The notes below the pieces were generated by a model. It worked only from the letters and a program-made list of their open reading frames with translations, was not told the origin of the DNA and searched no databases. The position numbers were made by a program, and so were the translations under genes. 64,000 nucleotides of DNA. Origin: Deltaproteobacteria bacterium RIFCSPHIGHO2_02_FULL_40_28 (GTDB lineage: Bacteria; UBA10199; 2-12-FULL-40-28). Positions 1,570 through 58,974 of this stretch are shown in pieces; positions within the stretch are counted from its first letter, which is position 1, and every line of letters begins with the position of its first letter. The DNA lies in NCBI GenBank assembly GCA_001798135.1, contig MGRJ01000020.1, positions 31,513 to 95,512 on the forward strand. The letters run 5' to 3'.

Positions 1570-2862
1570 ATGCAAAAAATTCAAACTTCACAAAAACTTT
1601 TTAGCCAAGCCCAAAAACATTTGGTAGGTGGGGTTAATTCGCCTGTGCGTGCTTTTAAAGCTGTGGGAGGTAATCCACTTTTTATTGTGCGCGCCAAGGG
1701 TTCCAGGGTTTGGGATGCCGATGGAAATGAATACATCGATTATGTGGGAAGTTGGGGGCCCGCCATTTTAGGTCATGCAGATTCTTTTGTATTAAATGCT
1801 TTAAATCAAGTGATGAAAAATGGAACTAGTTTTGGGGCTCCCACCACCTTGGAAATTGAATTGGCTCTCGAGGTTAAAAAGGCTTATCCCTCCATTGATC
1901 TCATTCGTTTTGTTAATTCAGGAACCGAAAGTTCCATGGCAGCTATTCGTTTAGCTCGTGGATTTACCGCAAAAAATAAAATCATTAAATTTGAGGGCTG
2001 TTACCATGGTCATGGTGATTCGCTACTTGTAAAAGCTGGTTCGGGGGCGCAAACTCTTGGTATTCCAGATAGTGCTGGGGTTCCTTCTGAATTTGCTGCT
2101 TTAACTTTGGTTGCCAATTATAACGATATTCAGTCTGTTAAAAATATTTTTCAAAAAAATAAAAACGAAGTAGCCTGTGTGATTATAGAACCCATTATGG
2201 GGAATATGGGTTGTATCTTGCCTCAACCTCACTTTTTAAAAGAATTAATCAACGTGGCTCACGAAAATCACTCCCTTGTTATTTTTGATGAAGTGATGAC
2301 TGGTTTTCGTGTGGCTTTTGGGGGAGCGCAGGAATTGTTCAACTTGCAAGCTGATATTACTTGTTTAGGTAAAATTATTGGTGGTGGTTTGCCTGTAGGA
2401 GCTTATGGGGGACGACGAGAAATAATGGAATATGTGGCGCCTCTTGGGCCCGTGTATCAAGCAGGAACTCTTTCGGGCAATCCCCTGGCCATGGCGGCAG
2501 GCCTTGTTACTTTAAAAAAATTACAGGAAAAAGATGTTTATAAAAAGTTGGAAGAAAAAGGGCATTTTTTAGAAGAAGGAATTAAATCAGCAGCACGTGA
2601 GGTAGGAATTTCCCTTCAATTGAATCGTGTTGGTTCAATGTTCTCTGTCTTTTTTTCAGATAAACCTGTACTGGATGCTGCGGGCGCTCTTTGTTCAAAC
2701 ACCAAAAATTTCAGCACCTTTTTTCACACCTTGCTCGATAATGGAATTTACACAGCTCCCTCAGCTTTTGAGGCTGGGTTTATTTCGTTAGCTCATACTG
2801 TAGAGGATTTGGAGAAAACCATTCAAGCTTATAAACAAGCAATTCTTAAAATTCATGAATGA
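1570..2862 (+). CDS. hemL: Glutamate-1-semialdehyde 2,1-aminomutase
   Basis: [19 protein letters not shown] and PLP-lysine region [19 protein letters not shown]; ATG at 1570 lies 4 nt after the hpnH stop (a longer TTG-initiated frame from 1537 would overlap hpnH). Confidence 0.9.
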
Positions 2863-3259
2863 CTAATGAAACACCGGTGATGGCTAAATGATGATCGGTA
2901 GACCAGCAAGATTTAATTTTGTGTTGATCCATCAGAAAAAGCCCTAAGGAATCAGCTAAGGTTAGGGTTTGGTCAGAATATTTTCGAATATACTTTGCTG
3001 CCTTTTCCATTTCTGTTTTCCCTATAGCTTTTATGGATAGGGGTTTTAATTCTTCGATAAAGTTTAAAAATTGCATGGCTCGTGTTCCATCGTAGCGTTT
3101 AAGAAACCATGCATGCCCTTCAGCAATGACGAGTGGCGAGGTAATAAGCGAGGGTGGATCAGAAAATAAGCGAGCAAACAAAGTGTGGTGAGTATCGGAT
3201 CGATCTAGGAACGCAATAAGTGCTGAGGTATCGACGTAGCTTTCAATCTTTTTGGCCAT
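2846..3259 (-). CDS. PIN-domain protein, VapC-like toxin (putative)
   Basis: About 137 aa from [16 protein letters not shown], with acidic residues in PIN-like positions (YVDTSAL, TLADS); 5' end overlaps the stop of the upstream small RHH ORF. Confidence 0.6.
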
Positions 3260-3467
3260 AAATGATATTATCGATATTTTGACTAGAGCAAGAATTGCCT
3301 GACTCCACAAAGCCAACAAATTTCATCCAGGGTTTGTTTTTAGAAATGGGTAAAAAATTTCGGAGTGATCGACGAAGGAGTTCTGCTAAGGATAACCCCT
3401 GGCGTTTAGCCTCAATTTTAGCCATTTGATATTCTTCTTTATTCAAACTTATTTGTGTTCTCATCAT
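3243..3467 (-). CDS. Ribbon-helix-helix antitoxin-like protein (VapB/CopG-like, putative)
   Basis: About 74 aa starting MMRTQISLNKEEYQMAKIEAKRQGLSLAELLRRSL (RHH DNA-binding N-terminus); immediately upstream of and overlapping the PIN gene. Confidence 0.5.
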   Translation of the reverse strand: MMRTQISLNKEEYQMAKIEAKRQGLSLAELLRRSLRNFLPISKNKPWMKFVGFVESGNSCSSQNIDNIIYGQKD

Positions 3468-3589: not shown

Positions 3590-6286
3590 TTATAGTGCAA
3601 TGAGAGGAGCAAATCCCATTGAGGCATCTAACCCCACTCCTGCAATCATAATACGTCCCATGGCATCAAAAGCTAGTCCGCCACCTAGGGCCGGGGCTCC
3701 ACTCCATCCATTATTTGTTGCAGCAGCAATGCCTAAACCTACTCCCAATTGGTTGGGAACCACTTCATAAAATACTCCTCCTCTAGCAGAAGCATAGGCA
3801 TAAAGAGGGAGAGCTGCTGTAACGGGGTTCATAAGGCCTGCAAGCATATCAGAGGGTTGTTTGCCTACTCTCACTCCAGTTTCCAATTGGCTTTTAAAAT
3901 AAAGTTTTCCATTGGGGACTAAATTTTTTCGATGAGTGGCCGATATATTTACACCCGCATAAACCCCACCACTAAAAGAAATCCCAGGGCCTGCTGTTAT
4001 TTTTACAATGGTGTTGGTGTTGGGATTGTACATAATGCCTACATAGGGTTGATTCCATAATTCACGAGCCGATATAATACCTTGTAAATTATATCCTGCT
4101 AAAACACTCCAATCTGATGTGGGGCTTCCAATGGGATGAGTAAATTCAAAACCCAAATTTGCTGCTTGATAGGAATTATTTGCAAAACCCAAATTAACTG
4201 CCGAATTCAAGGTAAGTGAATCTCCAGCCTTATTGAGGTAGGGCATAGTATAACCCACTCCTGCATTCAAAGCAGGGGCTAAAGGAATTCCACTCACACC
4301 TGCACTTGTCAGTAAATTGTGCCCATTCATGAAGCGAGTGGTAGCACCTCCATAAGGAGAGGCACCTGTGGCACCACCATCTATGCCAAATTCCGGAGAT
4401 ATGAGGATACCATCCCTGGCTAATTTAACTTTAATGATGACATCTCCAGGGCGTTTTTTATCGGGAACAATATCCCAAACAATCTGTACTGGAAAATTTC
4501 CTCCAGGTTTACTTTCAGCTTTGCGGTCAATACGATTATGGTCGCTCCAATCTGGAAGCCCAGAGCGCTCTAATTGATCAAGTTGGTAGTCGATAATGGT
4601 AGAGTAACCTGTTGTTCTGTTGCCAATAGCTAAAATGGTATTAGCAACATCTGTATGTTTGTAATACCTTCCTTCAAAATCCAATCTTTTGCGGAGCATT
4701 TTTTCTCCACCCTGGGTATAAAACCAATCTTGTAATTGGGCATAAGCTGCTGGGTTGTCTTCTTTTCCATAAAATTCAAAATCAATTTTTGAAATTTTTG
4801 CAAAATGAAGATTGGTTAATCCACTTGGAGTAGGACGGCCAATAACGAGTTTTTGATTATCATAAGAGAGATCAACGGCTCTAGCATCCATAGCTTCATC
4901 TGTTTCAGGATCTATTTCTACCCCTGATTTTAAAAGATAACCTTCTTCAAGTTGGTAATATTGGTCTAACTTGGCAAGACCCCGATTGATGGATTTATTT
5001 GTATACTGAGGTTGTTTGCGCCCAGGTTTATGGTTTTTAAACCAATGTTCCAATCGATGAGGATTAAGTTGTATATCTGAACGCAGTTCAATTTTTTTGG
5101 GCATGGGAATCAAAATATAATTGAGATGAAGAGTAGATCCATCGGCCCAAGGTTTTCCACCAGGTTGAACATAGTATGAATGTCCATCCAGTTGTCCTTT
5201 ATTAAAGTAGGCAACAAGATCTTGTTCGAGTTCTTTTATGTTTCTTTCGTTTAAAGGGTAACGAATTTTTATTTCCTTAGATGCTGGATTAAACGAAATA
5301 TTTTTAACGGGGTGTCCATCCTTATCTGCAATGGTTGCATCAAGTGTAACAGAGAGATATTGGGGTTTGCAAAGAACTGGAATTACAAGTTCGTTGTGGT
5401 CGTTAATTTCCGGGGTTCCTAAACCTGCAAAATGCTCAAACTTTTTATTTTTCTTAAAATAACTTTGTAATTTTGATATTCCTTTTTCAATGTTCTTTTG
5501 AGAATAAGGGTAATCAAAAAAACTAAGAATTTTTTTTGTTAATTGATCTCGAATTTCTTGATTGGCATAGGGCAGGCCTTCATCATCTGTAATCAAGGGA
5601 ACAATTCCTTCCACAGGGGGGCTTATTTTATAAACAACGGTTACTTTTCCTTCTTCATCAAACTTAATATCAATGGGTAGAACATTGACGGTATTTTTAA
5701 AAAGAGATTGGGCTATGTTTTTAAAAATACCTTCGAGTTGAGCAAACTCTTCAGCGGAAATCACACCATCTTTTCCAACAATCTTTTCTGTTTTTTTGCG
5801 GATGGTTTTTTCTAAATGTTCAAGACGTTGTGATGTTTCTTTTGAAGGACGCCACTCATTTTTTAAGTGAGGTCCTTCAACAGAACTAAAAGAATATCCC
5901 CATTCAAACTTGGTTCCTCCATAAGAAAAATTGGAAGAATCTTGTTCATTTTTCCAAAGTAGTTTGGCTTGAGTTGTTTTTTTAAGTCCTTTTTCAGGGC
6001 TAGAATGGATAAGGGTTAATTCATGAGGAAGTTGTTTAAGATCTATTGTTGGATCAAGCCAGGCAATGTAGCGATAATTTTGGTTATGAATGGTTTGCTC
6101 AAAAATAATTTCATCAAAGAAGGGTTTATCAAATTGAGTGAAAAAATCTTTGGGCTTTATACTGGCATCAACTATTTCAAAGTGATCAAGAGGAATAAAC
6201 TCCGATCCATTTTGAATGGCCGATTGAACAGGAATATCTTCAGAGGTGTTATCACCACGAACAGAATTGAGAACAAAGTGAACCAT
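3590..6286 (-). CDS. Large hypothetical protein (898 aa) with Gly/Ala-rich C-terminal domain
   Basis: Long uninterrupted ORF with no obvious N-terminal signal peptide (MVHFVLNSVRGDNTSED). The C-terminal ~300 aa are strongly G/A/S/N-rich with alternating hydrophobic residues. No catalytic motif recognised. Confidence 0.6.
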   Translation of the reverse strand: MVHFVLNSVRGDNTSEDIPVQSAIQNGSEFIPLDHFEIVDASIKPKDFFTQFDKPFFDEIIFEQTIHNQNYRYIAWLDPTIDLKQLPHELTLIHSSPEKGLKKTTQAKLLWKNEQDSSNFSYGGTKFEWGYSFSSVEGPHLKNEWRPSKETSQRLEHLEKTIRKKTEKIVGKDGVISAEEFAQLEGIFKNIAQSLFKNTVNVLPIDIKFDEEGKVTVVYKISPPVEGIVPLITDDEGLPYANQEIRDQLTKKILSFFDYPYSQKNIEKGISKLQSYFKKNKKFEHFAGLGTPEINDHNELVIPVLCKPQYLSVTLDATIADKDGHPVKNISFNPASKEIKIRYPLNERNIKELEQDLVAYFNKGQLDGHSYYVQPGGKPWADGSTLHLNYILIPMPKKIELRSDIQLNPHRLEHWFKNHKPGRKQPQYTNKSINRGLAKLDQYYQLEEGYLLKSGVEIDPETDEAMDARAVDLSYDNQKLVIGRPTPSGLTNLHFAKISKIDFEFYGKEDNPAAYAQLQDWFYTQGGEKMLRKRLDFEGRYYKHTDVANTILAIGNRTTGYSTIIDYQLDQLERSGLPDWSDHNRIDRKAESKPGGNFPVQIVWDIVPDKKRPGDVIIKVKLARDGILISPEFGIDGGATGASPYGGATTRFMNGHNLLTSAGVSGIPLAPALNAGVGYTMPYLNKAGDSLTLNSAVNLGFANNSYQAANLGFEFTHPIGSPTSDWSVLAGYNLQGIISARELWNQPYVGIMYNPNTNTIVKITAGPGISFSGGVYAGVNISATHRKNLVPNGKLYFKSQLETGVRVGKQPSDMLAGLMNPVTAALPLYAYASARGGVFYEVVPNQLGVGLGIAAATNNGWSGAPALGGGLAFDAMGRIMIAGVGLDASMGFAPLIAL

Positions 6287-6449: not shown

Positions 6450-6455
6450 GTCTTG

Positions 6456-7574
6456 ATGTTTCGTAAAAGACGCCAGGCCATATTAAAAGATCTCACAAAA
6501 AAAATGGTGTTTTTAACAGGTCCCAGGCAGGTGGGAAAAACCTGGCTTGCCTTGGATATTTCCAAGGACTTTAAAAAACCAACCTATCTTAGTTTTGATA
6601 ATCCAGACCATAGACAAGTGCTTAAAGGAAGAGAATGGCTGCCAGATACCGATCTTCTCGTTCTGGATGAAATTCATAAAATGCGTGGATGGAAAAATTA
6701 CCTGAAAGGAGTTTATGACACGAAACCAGAGAGTTTGAGTATCTTAGTTACAGGGAGTGCTCGCCTGGAAACTTTTCGTCAGGCAGGAGATTCTCTGGCT
6801 GGAAGATTTTTTGTTCATCATCTCATGCCTTTTTGTTTAAACGAACTCCCCAATTCTACGTTGGAGGATCAACAAAAATTGATTGAATGTGGAGGATTTC
6901 CAGAGCCATTTTTAGCTCCCAATCAAGAAGAGGCCAGTCGCTGGCAGTCTTTGTATTTTGATAGTTTAATGCGAGAAGAAATTTTTGAATTCCAACGAAT
7001 TTTCGAGTTAAAAGCGATAAGGCTTATTCTAGAGCGTTTACAAAGAAATGTTGGGAGCCCTGTTTCCTATCAATCTCTGGCAGAAGATGTGCAAATATCA
7101 CCACAAACGGTTAAACGGTATATTCAGATCTTAGAGGATCTTTATATTATTTTTCGTGTTATTCCTTATTCTCAAAATATTGCCAGATCTTTACTCAAAG
7201 AACCCAAAATTTATTTTTACAATACTGGTTTTGTAGTGGGAGATATTGGTGCCCATCTTGAAAATTTTGTTGCTGTTAGTCTTTTAACTCACCTGTTTGA
7301 AAAAAGTGATTTACTGGGTGACAAAACTCAATTGGCCAATTTGCGAACAAAGGAAAAAAAGGAAGTTGATTTTTGTTTGGTTGTAGGAAATAAAATCAAA
7401 GAGTTAATCGAATGCAAACTAACCGATGATCAGCTAGCCCCTTCTCTCCGATATTTTTGCAACAAATACCATTTGAAAGGAACTCAACTTGTTAAGACCC
7501 CCCGCATTGAAAAACAGGTAGAATCCATCCAAATAAGGGCTAGTTTTCATTATTTGAAAGGCCTTGGATCATAA
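6456..7574 (+). CDS. AAA+ ATPase, AAA_14/DUF4143-type
   Basis: Walker A GPRQVGKT, Walker B-like LLVLDEIH, and a C-terminal DUF4143-like region. The N-terminal ILKDL..KMVF extension is shared with the paralogs at 43469 and 44620. Confidence 0.8.
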   Translation: MFRKRRQAILKDLTKKMVFLTGPRQVGKTWLALDISKDFKKPTYLSFDNPDHRQVLKGREWLPDTDLLVLDEIHKMRGWKNYLKGVYDTKPESLSILVTGSARLETFRQAGDSLAGRFFVHHLMPFCLNELPNSTLEDQQKLIECGGFPEPFLAPNQEEASRWQSLYFDSLMREEIFEFQRIFELKAIRLILERLQRNVGSPVSYQSLAEDVQISPQTVKRYIQILEDLYIIFRVIPYSQNIARSLLKEPKIYFYNTGFVVGDIGAHLENFVAVSLLTHLFEKSDLLGDKTQLANLRTKEKKEVDFCLVVGNKIKELIECKLTDDQLAPSLRYFCNKYHLKGTQLVKTPRIEKQVESIQIRASFHYLKGLGS

Positions 7575-13489: not shown

Positions 13490-14956
13490 ATGAAGTATTT
13501 ACGTTTATTTGTCGTTTTTTCTAGTTTTGTTTTTCTCATCAACTGTAGTGGGAGTTCCAGTAGCGATAGCGATAGTGATAGTGGAACGGTTAGTTCCGAT
13601 GCCTTAAGTTCCTTAACAAACATCCCTGATTTAAACGTGGATAGTATGGATGCGAATAGTGCTACCACAAACTCCAGTCTTTCCTCCCTTGTCAAGGCAG
13701 CAAGTACAAGGCCGAGTGATAGATCTTATTCAAGAACGGCTTGCGAGGTGAGATCTGCTGTTGAAGAAATTAAAAGCCAAGTCAAAGGTTTTCGGTCTGA
13801 AATGTGTATTGACAAAGCCTTTGAATCTGCTGGTTTGATTGCAGTGGGTAATGGGGCTTTTAATTATTACGAGGTTATTATTGATGAATCCATGTTTGCT
13901 GATGAACTCGAAGATGAACTCGAAGAAGGTGGTTTTGACCCGGATGATTTGGGAGAAGAAACAGCCTATGTGCGCGTTGGTTTAGTGAGTGACCAGTTGA
14001 GTGTGATGTTGTGCGAAATTGATGATGATGATGGTCAAGGCCAAGGCACTTATACCCAAACTTTGGAAATGATCTACACCGTTTCTGGCGGCCGATTTAG
14101 TGGACAATTAACTGATATTTTGGGTTCTGACAGTTATCAAATCACCATTACAGCTGATGATGTTGCGGCATCCTTTGATGATGGTGAAGCCGTGGAAATT
14201 GCCATGGGATTTAATGGTCAATGGGGCGCTGGTACCATTAACTTTAACGCAGACAAAGCCAGCTCGGTTATAACCAATGAAATGGATTTTTCTTGGCGTT
14301 CTGGAGCTTCAGGATCTGAATGGGGTACCTGGCGTTCAACAGGTTATGCCCTTTTTGATTCTCAGGAAGGGTGTGGCGTACACGAATCTACGGGAACCTA
14401 CAAGGGAGATGTGGCAGGCAATATGTTCTCACTAGAAGACTTAACCACTCTAGGCCTTGCCGCTTCTGATAATGTTTGCTGGAAACAAGTGGATAATTAT
14501 GAAACTGCTGTTTGGCCAACTGATTTTGTGGAAGCAGCTGATTCAAATGGCATGTGTACTTTTACAGATGGAAGTACCGATAACACTGAATGTTTCTTTT
14601 ATGACTTAACAGATGCCGGAGCCCTTGATTACATGGTGCTTGGAGATACCTCTGCTTCTCCCTATGTGGATGCTGTTACTGCCAAATCCAGCTTTTTGGA
14701 CTTTAACGAACCTACGTTTACTTTCCAAGAAACCTGGGATTGTACGGCTCCCAATGGGTTTACTCGAGTTGTGGTAGCAGAGCATCCTGATCTCCTTGTC
14801 TCATTGTCTGCATGTATTGCCTTGGAAGTTGAAGCAGAAGGCTCACGCAGTACTGAGTCTTGTGAAGATAAAGAACAGCAAGACCATGCAGAAGGTGAAA
14901 CTGGTCAAGAATTTAGTGGAGAAGGAGAAGGCCAGGGTCAAGAGCAAGGTCCATAA
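13490..14956 (+). CDS. Acidic low-complexity lipoprotein (hypothetical)
   Basis: Signal peptide with lipobox LINC followed by SGSSSSDSDSDSG; strongly acidic (D/E-rich), Cys-containing; C-terminal GEGQGQEQGP. Confidence 0.6.
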   Translation: MKYLRLFVVFSSFVFLINCSGSSSSDSDSDSGTVSSDALSSLTNIPDLNVDSMDANSATTNSSLSSLVKAASTRPSDRSYSRTACEVRSAVEEIKSQVKGFRSEMCIDKAFESAGLIAVGNGAFNYYEVIIDESMFADELEDELEEGGFDPDDLGEETAYVRVGLVSDQLSVMLCEIDDDDGQGQGTYTQTLEMIYTVSGGRFSGQLTDILGSDSYQITITADDVAASFDDGEAVEIAMGFNGQWGAGTINFNADKASSVITNEMDFSWRSGASGSEWGTWRSTGYALFDSQEGCGVHESTGTYKGDVAGNMFSLEDLTTLGLAASDNVCWKQVDNYETAVWPTDFVEAADSNGMCTFTDGSTDNTECFFYDLTDAGALDYMVLGDTSASPYVDAVTAKSSFLDFNEPTFTFQETWDCTAPNGFTRVVVAEHPDLLVSLSACIALEVEAEGSRSTESCEDKEQQDHAEGETGQEFSGEGEGQGQEQGP

Positions 14957-33727: not shown

Positions 33728-33846
33728 CCAGTTGATAATCATAAGCTTTTTAATCTTAAATTAATTATAGGTATTTCTTGACCCTTCATTTTTATTCCTG
33801 TACAATCAATGTTTATATTTAACTTTATTTGGGGCGGAAGGGGGAC

Positions 33847-34542
33847 ATGATGAGAAGCAAGTCAATTTGGTCATTTCTTTTTTTAATTACTATTCTTTCA
33901 TTAGCTGCCTGTAGCAGTTCAGATAGTGATTCAACAAGTACATCTGATTCAGCTGATGATTTGGGGGCTGGTGTAAGTGCTGTGTTTTCATCTGGAGCTA
34001 GTTCAAGTACCAGTGCTAGCTTGTCAAAAGGGATTTTGAATTTGTTTTTAAGACAAGCCCAGGCTGAAGGGGAATGTTCTACAACCTGTTCCTGTGTTGG
34101 AGATGATGGCCCTGATAATATTACAACATCAGCTACCGGAACTGCAGGGACGTATGGAGCCGATACAGATACTACAGACACAATGGTAGTAACAGCCGAT
34201 CATTTTTGTTCTGTTTCCACCTCAACAACTGGTGGGCCAGATGGATCGGGGCAGTTTGCTACTTTTGATTTTGCTTCTGCGGTTACTGCAAATTGTACAG
34301 CAGCTGATTTGTCAACTAGCACAACTACAATTTCAGCAGGATCTGGAATTTGGAGAAATACCAGCACCCATGAACCCGAGGTTTATGGAAGCTTTACTGT
34401 AGATAGCGTAGAATATGATTGTACTATTTTTATCTTATCTGGAGAATCAGGAGAAGTAGACGGGGATAATAGCAATTGTGTTGATGCTGATGGTGTCAGT
34501 GTTACCATTGCTGATGATAGTACTTGTACCATTTCAGAATAG
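33847..34542 (+). CDS. Ser/Thr/Asp-rich lipoprotein (hypothetical)
   Basis: Signal peptide with lipobox LAAC followed by SSSDSDSTSTSDSADD; Cys-containing, low-complexity acidic mature region. Confidence 0.6.
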   Translation: MMRSKSIWSFLFLITILSLAACSSSDSDSTSTSDSADDLGAGVSAVFSSGASSSTSASLSKGILNLFLRQAQAEGECSTTCSCVGDDGPDNITTSATGTAGTYGADTDTTDTMVVTADHFCSVSTSTTGGPDGSGQFATFDFASAVTANCTAADLSTSTTTISAGSGIWRNTSTHEPEVYGSFTVDSVEYDCTIFILSGESGEVDGDNSNCVDADGVSVTIADDSTCTISE

Positions 34543-44619: not shown

Positions 44620-45777
44620 TTATACAATGGTATAAGGCAACTCTTTTACAAATTTAGCAAAAGGGAGAACCCTTATGGGAAAAGTGGCATGTTCATAATC
44701 TTTTACCCCTAGATGAACTTGATAAAAGCGAGGTATTTTTAGCCTTTGGCAATAGTAAAAAAGAGAAGGATTAATTGTTGTTTGATTGATATGGCACTCA
44801 ACAGCAAATAATGGTTTTTTTTGTTTTAAGACAACAAAATCAACCTCACGTTTATCTGTATCACGGATATAACGAAGTTCCATAGGAAATCCCTCTACAT
44901 CTTCCATAAAGTTGCAATATTTTAGGAGATGAGAAGCAACCATGTTTTCAAAGCGGGGGCCTTTTTCTTCAACAAGGGACCAATCCCATAAATAAGCCTT
45001 ATTTTCCTTTTTAACTGCCCTGATTTTAGGAGCTCCAAAGGGAGGAATACGAAATAAAACAAAAAGACGTTCTAGAATGATTAGCCAATTTTGAACAGTT
45101 GGGTGAGAAACTTGGAGATCTTCTCTTAAAGCATTAATAGAAAGAGGGGACCCTACCAAGGCAGGGAGTCTTTCTGCAAGTTGACCAACCAGAGTTACCT
45201 CTTCAACACGTTCTAAATCTCTTAAGTCATCTCGTAATACTTGGTTAAATCTTTCCTGATGCCATCGCCTGAGTTTTTTTTGTGATTGGGAAAATAAAGG
45301 TTCTGGAAAGCCACCAAACTGAAAGAGGGATTCTACAGCATCAACATGAGCCTCTTTGTCTAGTTCTAAAAGACTAAAAGGGTGGAGTCTAAAAAAATGA
45401 TATCTTCCCGTAAGGGCATCTCCACCACGTCTATAGAGATCAAGTCTGGCGCTTCCTGTAACTAAATAAGCACGTTGTGTTTTTGTTTTATCATAAAGAC
45501 CTTTAAGCCAATTACGCCATCTTTTATATTTATGAATTTCATCGAATACCAAAAGTTTTTGATTGGGTGGAAATTGAAAATTAAGGAGAAGCTGTTGATC
45601 TTCTAAGAAATCCCAGTTAAAGTAGGCAGGATGGTTTTCGCTTCCTCCTAGGAGATTTAAAGCCAAGGTTGTTTTACCTACTTGGCGAGGCCCTGATAGA
45701 AAAACCATTTTTTCTTTTAAGTCTTCTTGAATATAGGGGGTTAAATAGCGTTTTGGCAGGTTATTAGTTATTTTCAT
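44620..45777 (-). CDS. AAA+ ATPase, AAA_14/DUF4143-type
   Basis: Walker A GPRQVGKTTLA, Walker B LLVFDEIH; start codon lies 3 nt from a perfect 30-bp palindrome. Confidence 0.8.
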   Translation of the reverse strand: MKITNNLPKRYLTPYIQEDLKEKMVFLSGPRQVGKTTLALNLLGGSENHPAYFNWDFLEDQQLLLNFQFPPNQKLLVFDEIHKYKRWRNWLKGLYDKTKTQRAYLVTGSARLDLYRRGGDALTGRYHFFRLHPFSLLELDKEAHVDAVESLFQFGGFPEPLFSQSQKKLRRWHQERFNQVLRDDLRDLERVEEVTLVGQLAERLPALVGSPLSINALREDLQVSHPTVQNWLIILERLFVLFRIPPFGAPKIRAVKKENKAYLWDWSLVEEKGPRFENMVASHLLKYCNFMEDVEGFPMELRYIRDTDKREVDFVVLKQKKPLFAVECHINQTTINPSLFYYCQRLKIPRFYQVHLGVKDYEHATFPIRVLPFAKFVKELPYTIV

Positions 45778-45810: not shown

Positions 45811-46014
45811 TATATTAAAATTACTAATATCTAAAGTCAACAAATAAAAATCCTTTTTGTGGTCTAACCCCCCCAAAACGAGTGGTTAAGACCTCAAACA
45901 TACAAAAAGCATACTAAAATAACTAATAATATCAAATAGTTATATATATCATTTTTGGCATTGGCCTTGCAATTGTCATAAAGTAACCCGGGGTGGGGAT
46001 TGTGGATATTTTTT

Positions 46015-46752
46015 ATGAAAGTAAAAAGTCTATTTTTTATTTTATTTTTAATTACATTCCTTTTTGCCTGTAGTGGTGGAGGTGGTGGAGGTAGTGAAAC
46101 GACAGATATCCCTCTTGCTCTAGTTGATAGTGATGGTGATGGATTAACTGTTGGATGTGATGTTGATGATAACGATCCTACTGAAATCGATTTTCTTTCT
46201 ATTTGTGATAGCGATGGTGATGGCTATGTAAATGTGGTGTGTTCTGCTTACGATGATAACGAAAGTGGTGCTGTTACCGAAGATGAATTAGCAAGTCGTT
46301 TTTACTGCGATAACTGTGTTGGTATTAATAATCCCGATCAATTAGATGATGATCACGATGGCGCTGGCAATGCTTGCGATGTAACTGCCGATGTTTCTGT
46401 TTCCTATGTTCCATCTACTGCCGACGATGATTCTTCTGAAGAAGATACCTTATCTACTTCGAGTACCGATACAGATAGTGATGGTTTTCCCGACAATTCA
46501 GAAGCCTGTCCTACGCGTGGGCAGGCTGATGAATATTTTGCCTATGAGGATTGGAATGAAAATGGAACCTACGATGCCGATTCCGATACTCTTTTAACCG
46601 ACGAAAATACCTGGGATGGTTGTGGTTACGATACCGATGGTGATGAAATTTATGACCATGCCGAATGCTCTACACTTTGCGTGATCATGGAAAACTCTGC
46701 CGATAGCTCTGTGTGTGGTTTAGCTGATGATACTGGAGATAATTGCGATTAA
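46015..46752 (+). CDS. Acidic lipoprotein with calcium-binding-like Asp-rich repeats (hypothetical)
   Basis: Signal peptide with lipobox FACSGGGGGGS, then repeated DxDGDG / DSDGDG / DDDHDGAGN motifs (thrombospondin type-3-like) and conserved Cys. Confidence 0.6.
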   Translation: MKVKSLFFILFLITFLFACSGGGGGGSETTDIPLALVDSDGDGLTVGCDVDDNDPTEIDFLSICDSDGDGYVNVVCSAYDDNESGAVTEDELASRFYCDNCVGINNPDQLDDDHDGAGNACDVTADVSVSYVPSTADDDSSEEDTLSTSSTDTDSDGFPDNSEACPTRGQADEYFAYEDWNENGTYDADSDTLLTDENTWDGCGYDTDGDEIYDHAECSTLCVIMENSADSSVCGLADDTGDNCD

Positions 46753-56843: not shown

Positions 56844-58010
56844 TTAAGCAAGCTTCGCCAATTCTTGGGCCATGGCTTTAACCCCGATGGCTTCCACACC
56901 ATCACCAAGGGGATAACGTTCATTCCCCGCATAAACAACAAAGCAACGTTGCGGTTTCATGTCTTGGCAGGCTTGGTAAAATCCTTTTTTCGGTTTGGGA
57001 GCAAGACCTCGTTTTATTTCAATGAACCAAAGCTTAGAACCTTTCAGCTCCAACACCAAATCTACTTCGGCGCCCGCTGCCGTTCGGTAAAAACTTTTTT
57101 CTATTTTTTCGGGCAGAGCGCGCAAAAGCGATTCGATGACAAATCCTTCCCAGCTAGCGCCCACAATGGGATGACCCAGAAGACTTTCTTCCGTGGTTAA
57201 CCCCAGAAGCGTGTGAGCAAGGCCACTGTCGCGGATAAAAATTTTAGGTGATTTTACCAGCCTTTTGCCGATGTTGGCATGAATGGGCTTTAACCTTCGT
57301 ACCAAAAGTAAATCAACCATGAGGTCCAAATACCGTGCAATGGTTTTGCCATCCACAGCTAGCCCCCTGGCCAGCCCCGCCGCATTGAGAAGACTTCCTT
57401 GCCCATGAGCTAGCATGGTCCAGAACCGCCGTAAGGTTTCGCTAGGGATGCGCGGGCCTAGTTGGGGGATGTCGCGCTCAAGGTATGTCCTGATGAATTC
57501 TTCACGCCAAGTGCTGCTCTGTTCTTCAGTTTTGGCTAGAAAACTGTTGGGAAAACCACCCCGCACCCAGAGCCGTTCCATTTGGGTTTCCGGCAATTCC
57601 AATGAATCAAACGGCGAGAGTTCTACGTAGGCAATGCGCCCGGCCAAACTTTCACCTGATTGTTTGAGCAAATCCAGCGATGCCGAACCTAAAAGAAGAA
57701 ACCGGCCTTGCTTCAACCCTTGCCTCCGGCCTTGGTCGATTAAACCTCGCAGGGTTTGAAAAAGTTGCGGGGCCCGTTGTATTTCATCGATCACAACAAG
57801 TTTGTTTTCATGAAGTTTTAAATATTTTTCAGCATCTAAAAGTTTTCCGCGGTCGGAGGGTAATTCTAAATCGAGGTAAACGCTCGGTCTTTTAGCTGCA
57901 ATCCCATGCGCCAGAGTTGTTTTTCCCACTTGCCGGGGGCCCACCAACGCCACAGCCGGAAATTCCTTCAGTCTCTTAACAACTAGGTTAGCTACCCGAC
58001 GGTTTATCAT
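56844..58010 (-). CDS. AAA+ ATPase, AAA_14/DUF4143-type
   Basis: Walker A GPRQVGKTTLA, Walker B LVVIDEIQ; start taken at MINRRVANL (the longer frame to 58151 would overlap sdhC). Confidence 0.8.
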   Translation of the reverse strand: MINRRVANLVVKRLKEFPAVALVGPRQVGKTTLAHGIAAKRPSVYLDLELPSDRGKLLDAEKYLKLHENKLVVIDEIQRAPQLFQTLRGLIDQGRRQGLKQGRFLLLGSASLDLLKQSGESLAGRIAYVELSPFDSLELPETQMERLWVRGGFPNSFLAKTEEQSSTWREEFIRTYLERDIPQLGPRIPSETLRRFWTMLAHGQGSLLNAAGLARGLAVDGKTIARYLDLMVDLLLVRRLKPIHANIGKRLVKSPKIFIRDSGLAHTLLGLTTEESLLGHPIVGASWEGFVIESLLRALPEKIEKSFYRTAAGAEVDLVLELKGSKLWFIEIKRGLAPKPKKGFYQACQDMKPQRCFVVYAGNERYPLGDGVEAIGVKAMAQELAKLA

Positions 58011-58076
58011 CCTTGTAATTATGGCATACAATTCCATAAATGCAAGGTTAGAGTAAAAGACAAGGCATATTTTTCC

Positions 58077-58105
58077 TTGACTAACCACGCCCCCTTTAAT
58101 ATTTA
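58077..58105 (+). promoter_or_regulatory. Candidate promoter for sdhCAB
   Basis: TTGACT at 58077-58082 followed 15-17 nt later by an A/T-rich -10-like hexamer (TAATATTTA region); about 40 nt upstream of the sdhC ATG. Confidence 0.3.
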
Positions 58106-58143
58106 ACGTCAACATCTTTAACGTCTTTATTTTTCTATTCGAC

Positions 58144-58974
58144 ATGACCACTCAAGAAATAGCAGTTGGAGGATATTCTAAAGGGTTTTCGCAAACACAT
58201 CGAACCGATCGTTGGTGGATTGGCCCCTTACTTACCTTTTTGGGTTTTTCTAGTTTTATTGTTTATTCAACCTGGGCAGCCCTTCAGGGAAATCACTATT
58301 TTTATGGTTCTTATCTTTCCCCCTTTTATTCTCCGCTCTTGTTTGTTGATCCTTCTGTAACTGGAGGGGCATCTCTTGAACATGCCTGGTTTGGAGGATG
58401 GCCTTCCTGGTGGCCTTCTTTTGTTCCTGCTTCGCCAGCCTTTTTGGTTCTAGCCTTTCCCGGTGCTTTCCGTTTTACCTGTTATTATTATCGAAAGGCT
58501 TACTATCGCGCCTTTGCCTTCACCCCTCCCGGTTGCGCTGTAACGGCTCTTCCCCAAAAAAATTATAAGGGAGAAACTTTTTTACTTCTTTTTCAAAATC
58601 TTCATCGCTATGCCCTTTATTTTGCCCTCTTTTTTATCATCATTCTTTTTTCAGATGCGGTGCAGGCCTTTTTTCGTGACGGAAAATTGGGAATAGGCGT
58701 AGGAAGCATTGTGTTGTTACTTAATGCCACTTTTCTTTCCTGCTACACCTTGGGATGCCATTCTTTTCGTCATCTTGTGGGGGGGAAGCTTGATTGTTTT
58801 TCGTGTGATGCCACAAGTAGCACGCGGTATGGTCTCTGGAAACGAGTTACCTTATTGAACGAAAATCACATGCTTTTTGCCTGGATTTCTCTTTTTTGGG
58901 TGGGATTTTCTGATGTTTACGTTCGTTTGGTTTCAATGGGCATTTGGCACGACCTATCCACATGGGGAAATTAA
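58144..58974 (+). CDS. sdhC: Succinate dehydrogenase/fumarate reductase cytochrome b membrane anchor (single-subunit type, putative)
   Basis: 276 aa, about 5 TM helices with several conserved His; located immediately upstream of sdhA-sdhB (C-A-B order). Confidence 0.6.
   Translation: MTTQEIAVGGYSKGFSQTHRTDRWWIGPLLTFLGFSSFIVYSTWAALQGNHYFYGSYLSPFYSPLLFVDPSVTGGASLEHAWFGGWPSWWPSFVPASPAFLVLAFPGAFRFTCYYYRKAYYRAFAFTPPGCAVTALPQKNYKGETFLLLFQNLHRYALYFALFFIIILFSDAVQAFFRDGKLGIGVGSIVLLLNATFLSCYTLGCHSFRHLVGGKLDCFSCDATSSTRYGLWKRVTLLNENHMLFAWISLFWVGFSDVYVRLVSMGIWHDLSTWGN

Follow-up and report, generated by a model that had tools for sequence, protein, structure and literature searches.

A divergent Omp85-superfamily protein without a recognisable signal peptide in an uncultured deltaproteobacterial lineage

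Introduction

What is the 898-residue protein encoded at positions 3590 to 6286 of the DNA analysed here, and what might it do? The stretch in question, hereafter the window, comprises 64,000 nucleotides of contig MGRJ01000020.1 (positions 31,513 to 95,512; assembly GCA_001798135.1) from Deltaproteobacteria bacterium RIFCSPHIGHO2_02_FULL_40_28. An initial annotation, made from the letters alone, could assign no family to this protein. Protein insertion into the outer membrane and two-partner secretion are universally catalysed by Omp85 proteins, and profile and fold comparisons place the protein, as a very divergent relative of BamA/Omp85, in a rare clade of this superfamily. Within this clade, POTRA array and 16-strand barrel have been retained, a new N-terminal domain has been acquired, and signal peptide, lid-lock motifs and long loops at the surface have been lost consistently. 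Our target is a rare variant within a well-known superfamily, with one surprising property, the family-wide absence of a signal peptide. In our judgement it is probably a specialised outer-membrane insertase or translocase, a paralog within the Omp85 (BamA/TamA/TpsB) superfamily.

A complete gene, identical across assemblies

The gene under study is the following:
3590–6286, minus strand: complete gene for the 898-residue divergent Omp85-superfamily protein, stop codon at 3590–3592 (open reading frame listing, identical contigs, profile and fold matches)

The single 2.7-kb open reading frame (ORF) of the initial annotation is confirmed, with its 898 codons on the minus strand. It starts with ATG, preceded by a Shine-Dalgarno-like GGGGA 7 nucleotides upstream and by an in-frame stop one codon upstream, and no alternative ATG, GTG or TTG start was found among its first ~40 codons. 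The frame is fully open in a genome of 39% guanine plus cytosine, a composition that is unremarkable for the window.

Assemblies made independently (NCBI, JGI, ENA and Logan) contain the same ORF on 20 contigs, with 0 nucleotide differences. Identical copies include GCA_001798365.1 and three further "Deltaproteobacteria bacterium" proteins from metagenome-assembled genomes (MAGs), all labelled hypothetical (OGQ07751.1 and others). Because all copies compared are identical, they offer no population variation usable for a selection test. The initial annotation had named a frameshift or an assembly fusion of unrelated genes as what could undo its reading. The ORF is neither such an artefact nor a chance ORF, since it is identical on 20 independent contigs and the full-length relatives described below share the domain order of the window protein. 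We reject the fusion and take the ORF to be a real gene.

A strain variant of the target (P0001, from SRR3989338) carries an in-frame deletion of ~63 residues, equivalent to window positions ~5803–5992 on the minus strand. It takes out the last strands of the N-terminal domain and the linker (~residues 99–161), with a few substitutions in the flanking residues, and could be natural variation or an assembly artefact.

A rare family related to BamA

Single-sequence searches of the target against Pfam, NCBIfam, PDB sequences, PADLOC and PHROGs returned nothing usable, which agrees with the failure of the initial annotation to name a family. An exhaustive phmmer search against 1.84 billion representative proteins gave 13 matches only: two are fragments or variants of the query itself, and nine are full-length proteins of 811–1106 residues that align with the target end to end at 20–27% identity. 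Word-indexed homolog searching proved unreliable for this protein: with the single sequence it gave one truncated strain variant and overlooked relatives present in the collection, and with the family profile it gave the same strain variant plus one canonical BamA. A scan of a genome contig collection with the single protein found no match, while the same collection scanned with a closer family alignment yielded two Nitrospira/Nitrospiraceae loci. Two scans of a metagenome contig collection for the family found none.

To place the family we used three alignments: A1, the family alignment employed as a profile; A2, a second family alignment; and A5, an alignment of canonical BamA. Four relatives match Pfam POTRA models, two of them above the gathering cutoff (P0002 and P0012) and two more weakly (P0007 and P0011); the window protein alone has no Pfam POTRA match. 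Against PDB sequences, profile A1 matched the Deinococcus BamA 8xnb (E 6.9e-12), the POTRA domains of cyanobacterial Omp85 (2x8x, E 8e-9; 3mc8, E 2e-8) and, weakly, those of Toc75. Alignment of A1 with the canonical Nitrospirae BamA alignment by hhalign gave a probability of 97.2% (96–97% across comparisons) and an E-value of 2.9e-11 over 329 columns, running from the POTRA modules into barrel strands 1–5 with the PW-x-D motif aligned. Homology is established for this middle region, that is, to POTRA domains and the first strands of the BamA barrel.

As defined in PMC11116518, the Omp85 superfamily comprises proteins with a C-terminal 16-stranded transmembrane beta-barrel and at least one POTRA domain. 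The target has a C-terminal 16-strand barrel in its predicted model, and at least one POTRA before the barrel according to the profile, the hhalign comparison and the Pfam matches in relatives. Having both defining features, it is a member of the superfamily. The initial annotation had called the protein unassignable and proposed separate profile searches of its N- and C-terminal parts; that verdict does not survive, since the family profile matches BamA POTRAs and strands 1–5 and fold comparisons agree. The four NCBI copies now called "hypothetical protein" can be named divergent Omp85/POTRA-family proteins.

Predicted architecture

An AlphaFold2 model was built from a 12-sequence alignment and its secondary structure was assigned with DSSP. 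The mean predicted local distance difference test score (pLDDT) is 71.7, with mostly 70–90 in the barrel, for which 16 strands are predicted. Foldseek against the PDB returned BamA or TamA for all of the top 50 matches (E down to 1.3e-18, over ~850–950 columns), and across the fold matches, which include BamA, TamA and TpsB, BamA is the best. The model divides as follows, from the N-terminus:
6227–6286, minus strand: residues 1–20, non-hydrophobic N-terminal extension, not a signal peptide (pLDDT <50, A1, hydrophobicity against controls, upstream stop)
5894–6226, minus strand: residues 21–131, family-specific N-terminal beta-rich domain, small and split-barrel-like
4412–5854, minus strand: residues ~145–625, five POTRA-like beta-alpha-alpha-beta-beta modules (DSSP, Pfam in relatives, profile, hhalign)
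4481–4621, minus strand: residues 556–602, low-confidence insertion in the last POTRA-like module (pLDDT <50; gap in relatives in A1)
3593–4405, minus strand: residues 628–898, compact 16-strand amphipathic beta-barrel
3806–3871, minus strand: residues 806–827, end of strand 11 and loop-6 equivalent of 19 residues (invariant columns in A1/A2, loop length)

The relatives begin near the equivalent of residue ~20, with M-x-x-I-x-I-N-G. One of them (P0009) carries an extra extension of ~195 residues (1–~195) before the conserved N-terminal domain; this extension, too, is non-hydrophobic, and it may have arisen by duplication of that domain. The five POTRA-like modules lie at about residues 145–225, 226–308, 310–396, 397–492 and 495–625, and the insertion in the last one is largely specific to the window protein and predicted to be disordered.

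The initial annotation had described the C-terminal region as Gly-rich and beta-barrel-like or fibrous. The barrel half of that description is borne out, with 16 predicted amphipathic strands between residues 628 and 897, and a fibrous, Gly-rich structural protein is rejected. The strands strictly alternate a hydrophobic face with a face of small or polar residues (G/S/N/T), and G, A, S and N together make up ~40% of residues 601–898 against ~22% of residues 1–600. Loops are 2–8 residues long, except for the 19 residues between strands 11 and 12. Such short loops suggest, in the model, a barrel more open than that of BamA. At the junction of strand 11 and loop 6, a family-conserved R806-x-G808-x-x-P811-x-D813 replaces the canonical VRG(F/Y).

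A conserved gene cluster around the relatives

The flanks could be read in four relatives: an uncultured Nitrospiraceae MAG (L007), a Nitrospira sp. MAG (L008), a 269-kb JGI contig (L011) and a Logan contig (L013). All four share one neighbourhood, and it differs from that of the window. Divergent from the family gene lie two to three mutually homologous, cysteine-rich proteins of MopE/acidic double-disulfide repeats:
L007 4335–8228; L008 2196–5738; L011 5779–9677; L013 679–9965: cysteine-rich MopE-repeat proteins

These proteins start with a classic signal peptide followed by G-Y-C-(W/L)-V and end in a tail made of a GC(G/S)-type motif, a transmembrane helix and basic residues. A tail composed of a cysteine motif, a transmembrane helix and basic residues is the architecture described for MYXO-CTERM-type sorting tags (PMC3325183, PMC11980579). 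The tails resemble such signals but occur outside the Myxococcota, in Nitrospira-type MAGs.

Downstream of the relatives lie a protein of 627–1108 residues and one of ~400 residues, neither with a signal peptide. They are located as follows:
L011 13503–16960; L013 12813–16139; L008 9329–12355; L007 11544–15083: downstream proteins

The larger one has a low-complexity N-terminus rich in S, T, P and A; in two of the loci (L011 and L013) it also carries an OmpA-like peptidoglycan-binding domain, a weak match that is nevertheless reproducible (E about 4e-7 to 7e-7). By architecture alone, the cluster loosely recalls the myxobacterial TraA/TraB proteins of outer-membrane exchange. It constitutes a concrete candidate for a new surface-protein biogenesis module, made of cysteine-rich sorting-tagged proteins and an OmpA-like protein. 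The initial annotation had seen in the target a candidate component of an undescribed surface or secretion system; in modified form this idea holds up, through the cluster of the relatives and not through the window context on which it had been based.

Two small, acidic, cysteine-rich and lipoprotein-like ORFs occur in the window itself (3.8–5.1% cysteine):
33829–34542, plus strand, and 46000–46752, plus strand: small acidic cysteine-rich ORFs with lipobox-like LAAC and LFAC

Against Pfam they show no significant match, to MopE, TSP3 or otherwise, only a weak one to TSP_3 (E 0.044). Both may encode small proteins related to the acidic cysteine-rich class of surface proteins.

Proposed function and the evidence against it

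As a specialised insertase or translocase, the protein would place its barrel in the outer membrane and its POTRA array and N-terminal domain in the periplasm. There, unfolded client polypeptides would dock onto the POTRAs by beta-augmentation, and their insertion or translocation at the outer membrane would be the task of the barrel seam. The protein would act as a dedicated machine like TamA or TpsB and not as the general BamA. Judging from the relatives, the likeliest clients would be the cysteine-rich, sorting-tagged surface proteins, and we presume that the target is active in this particular genome. Nitrospirae lineages also have separate, canonical BamA proteins with signal peptides, so that the signal-less family is an extra paralog at least at the level of the phylum. 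We hold this proposal to be somewhat more likely than not.

A number of observations weigh against it, among them the N-terminus. Signal peptides were judged by a hydrophobicity heuristic, the highest 10-residue Kyte-Doolittle mean within the first 60 residues. This value is 1.08 for the window protein and at most 1.40 for all 10 full-length family members, compared with 2.3–3.65 for the controls (canonical BamA and signal-peptide-bearing neighbours). By this measure neither the window protein nor its nine full-length relatives have a signal peptide, as the initial annotation had noted for the former, nor was a transmembrane-helix-like segment found anywhere in these ten sequences. The conserved family sequence starts within a few residues of the start methionine in nearly all members. 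Upstream frames are closed within 0–32 codons in nine loci, and the longest extension is not signal-like. To our knowledge, all characterised bacterial Omp85 members enter the periplasm through Sec with a signal peptide, and a literature search for bacterial Omp85 proteins described without one returned nothing relevant. An outer-membrane barrel is expected to need an N-terminal Sec signal peptide (PMC13078400), and a signal-less family therefore conflicts with the accepted rule.

The remaining points, whether contrary or simply atypical, concern the barrel, the N-terminal domain and the gene context. Outer-membrane barrels in general have a C-terminal beta-signal that ends in an aromatic residue, for which the picture is mixed: the C-terminus of the window protein reads ...PLIAL, that of the closer group finishes in Q, and distant relatives have ...KQF, ...GGNF, ...AFRW and ...DVEF. 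No profile similarity to BamA was found by hhalign for barrel strands 6–16. PF01103 (Bac_surface_Ag/Omp85) has no match in the window protein at E <= 1 or in ten relatives at E <= 0.1, and is present in the canonical BamA P0014 and all its relatives. None of the NCBIfam BamA models (TIGR03303 and others) recognises the window protein, and the relatives reach only 12–15 bits against the BamA equivalog models, for which the cutoffs are 297 and 1050. The TpsB-type models PF08479 (POTRA_2) and PF03865 (ShlB) likewise have no significant match in the window protein or its relatives. The lid-lock motifs, described as (V/L/M)RG(F/Y/W) in loop 6 and FxDxG in strand 13 (PMC11358297), were sought in the family as VRG(F/Y) and FxDxG and not found: where the canonical alignment A5 shows VRG and FFDYG, strand 13 of the family is Gly-rich, with G-x-G and no aspartate. 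The extra N-terminal domain, atypical in itself, has no structural neighbour. Finally, when the cluster proteins of the relatives were compared by BLAST with all ORFs of the window, only the target was matched; its expected partners are absent from these 64 kb.

Should the clade be functional, then either its members have a way to the outer membrane that has not been recognised, or the Omp85 scaffold has been adapted to another purpose. A bolder form of the idea is that these proteins make up a novel class among bacterial Omp85-type proteins, one whose members get to a membrane without Sec, either exported by a route as yet unknown or delivered from outside the cell or from cell to cell. Together with the cysteine-rich sorted proteins and the signal-less OmpA-like partner they would then constitute an envelope apparatus not described before, serving surface display, or contact or exchange at the outer membrane, in Nitrospirota and related uncultured 'Deltaproteobacteria' lineages. 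We consider this doubtful and offer it as speculation.

Neighbouring genes in the window

The initial annotation had described a VapBC-like pair on one side of the target and a divergent DUF4143 ATPase on the other, and the flanks are indeed of this kind:
2846–3259, minus strand: PIN-domain toxin (E 2.9e-11), downstream of the target
3243–3467, minus strand: ribbon-helix-helix (RHH)-type antitoxin, VapB-like, weak match, downstream of the target
3505–3477, minus strand: sigma-70-type promoter-like site TTGACT-17-TATAAT, 11 of 12 consensus positions, in the 122-nucleotide gap after the target
6453–7574, plus strand: AAA_14/DUF4143 ATPase, divergent, upstream of the target
44620–45777, minus strand; 56844–58151, minus strand; L001 19665–20825: paralogs of the DUF4143 ATPase

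The VapB-like and PIN genes overlap by 17 nucleotides, and the promoter-like site suggests that the pair is an independent transcription unit. The ATPase matches the PADLOC single-gene candidate PDC-S01 (E 4.5e-53), and at least four paralogs in all are scattered among the housekeeping genes of the genome. One of them adjoins another MazE/PIN pair just outside the window. The surroundings in the window are otherwise housekeeping in character: hemL, an HpnH-like radical-SAM gene, ATP synthase F0, panBC, aconitase, IDH, SDH, gltX and asnB. The target itself has no match in PADLOC or PHROG, and an Rfam scan of the window detected no RNA features.

The functional link to these flanking genes that the initial annotation had drawn is not supported, given the promoter-like site of the VapBC pair, the single-gene character and the paralogs of the ATPase, and the lack of a PADLOC or PHROG match for the target. 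Nor is the arrangement conserved: the four relatives with readable flanks sit in the different cluster described above, with no ATPase or toxin–antitoxin pair adjacent. The VapBC pair and the ATPase are self-contained, scattered elements that do not look like partners; in this genome the target stands alone between self-contained genes of mobile or defence type.

A distant relative (P0008) has a PIN_3/MazE-type pair (L010 121–871) immediately upstream on the opposite strand, the only other such adjacency; it is probably coincidental, because toxin–antitoxin pairs are abundant in these genomes. Elsewhere in the window, a 488-residue ORF (13490–14956, plus strand) with no Pfam, PADLOC or PHROG match lies between amidohydrolase and acyl-CoA dehydrogenase genes.

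Alternative explanations

The missing signal peptide could be taken at face value. The Omp85-like fold would then be real, and the protein would leave the cell by a Sec-independent route or by release; its open barrel with short loops would enter a membrane from the opposite side. The membrane in question might be the surface of the producing cell, of a neighbour or of prey, and the protein would form pores there or help in outer-membrane contact or exchange. The whole family lacks signal peptides, and so do the downstream OmpA-like proteins of the relatives; the very short loops, the G/S/N/T lumen side, the lack of dome loops and the missing lid-lock motifs also fit an open barrel. Moreover, a protein with a cysteine motif, transmembrane helix and arginine tail, next to one with an unknown N-terminus and an OmpA-like domain, are the architecture types of TraA and TraB (PMC3325183), although this resemblance is one of architecture only. 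On the other hand, no bacterial Omp85 is known to act in this way, no type I, III or VI secretion genes were seen in the window or in the parts of the four clusters that were read, and an array of five POTRAs typifies a chaperone-docking module that faces the periplasm. We regard such an exit as unlikely, with some room left for it. Less likely again is that the copy in this genome is orphaned and possibly decaying, cut off from the cysteine-rich/OmpA-like cluster and non-functional or marginally so. The 64-kb window holds no partner genes, the genes on either side are of mobile type, the protein has lost its aromatic residue at the C-terminus, the last POTRA-like module carries a lineage-specific disordered insertion, and the strain variant P0001 has its ~63-residue in-frame deletion in the N-terminal domain and linker. 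However, 2.7 kb remain fully open at 39% guanine plus cytosine, the sequence is identical on 20 contigs from multiple samples, the family-invariant barrel residues are kept, and the partner genes may lie elsewhere in the genome, outside the window.

Two further readings can be set aside almost entirely. That the target is the housekeeping BamA ortholog of the organism, diverged past detection by hidden Markov models, would agree with its five POTRA-like modules and 16-strand barrel, the same count as in BamA, and with BamA giving the best fold matches. Yet BamA is universal in diderms, while this family yields 13 matches in 1.84 billion proteins, and normal BamA proteins are found in the Nitrospirae lineages that contain relatives of the target. 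The gene bamA is typically flanked by skp, lpxD and rseP, and this usual neighbourhood is absent around the target. With no signal peptide, no TIGR03303 or PF01103 match and no lid-lock motifs in addition, we reject this reading as highly improbable. Hardly any credence goes to the target as an effector or membrane part of a defence or toxin–antitoxin-linked system with the flanking ATPase and VapBC pair, as the initial annotation had entertained. The three units are physically adjacent, the ATPase matches a PADLOC candidate, and P0008 also adjoins a PIN and MazE pair. However, that candidate, PDC-S01, is a single-gene system, at least three more paralogs of the ATPase are scattered among housekeeping genes, and the VapBC pair has a promoter-like site of its own. 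The target has no PADLOC or PHROG match, and none of the four relatives with readable flanks has an adjacent ATPase or toxin–antitoxin pair, a different cluster being conserved there. With no conserved co-occurrence with the flanking genes, the defence reading is largely refuted.

Comparison with known Omp85 systems

Set against BamA, the protein lacks a signal peptide and adds an N-terminal domain of ~110 residues. Its barrel has only 271 residues and loops of 2–8 residues, so that there is no dome of loops 4, 6 and 7. It has neither VRG(F/Y) nor FxDxG and is not found by PF01103 or TIGR03303; the window protein has no aromatic C-terminus, and the family is extremely rare instead of universal. 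The noNterm Omp85 paralogs of Leptospira and BBJ25 of Borrelia are likewise non-canonical and were recognised mainly by AlphaFold models and gene context (PMC11358297, PMC13078400). Those proteins lack POTRAs but keep their signal peptides, and those of Leptospira keep (L/M)RG(W/Y) and FxDxG, whereas our family shows the reverse: its POTRA array is complete, and signal peptide and motifs are missing.

TpsB proteins (FhaC, CdiB, ShlB) have two POTRAs and an N-terminal plug helix, in contrast to the five POTRA-like modules and beta domain of the target; the neighbours of the relatives have no two-partner secretion (TPS) domain and are instead the MopE-repeat cysteine-rich proteins with sorting-type tails, transcribed divergently. 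TamA has three POTRAs, a signal peptide and TamB (DUF490) as its partner, and no DUF490 gene was found in the window flanks or in the clusters of the relatives. The POTRA profile matches the cyanobacterial Omp85 proteins Tlr1789 and Alr2269 significantly and Toc75 weakly, but cyanobacterial Omp85, Toc75 and Sam50 have one to three POTRAs and keep the loop-6 motif. Sam50 is the one well-known Omp85 made without a cleavable signal peptide. It is signal-less because it is imported from the eukaryotic cytosol, whereas the gene described here is found on contigs of bacterial chromosomes, surrounded by housekeeping genes that are likewise bacterial.

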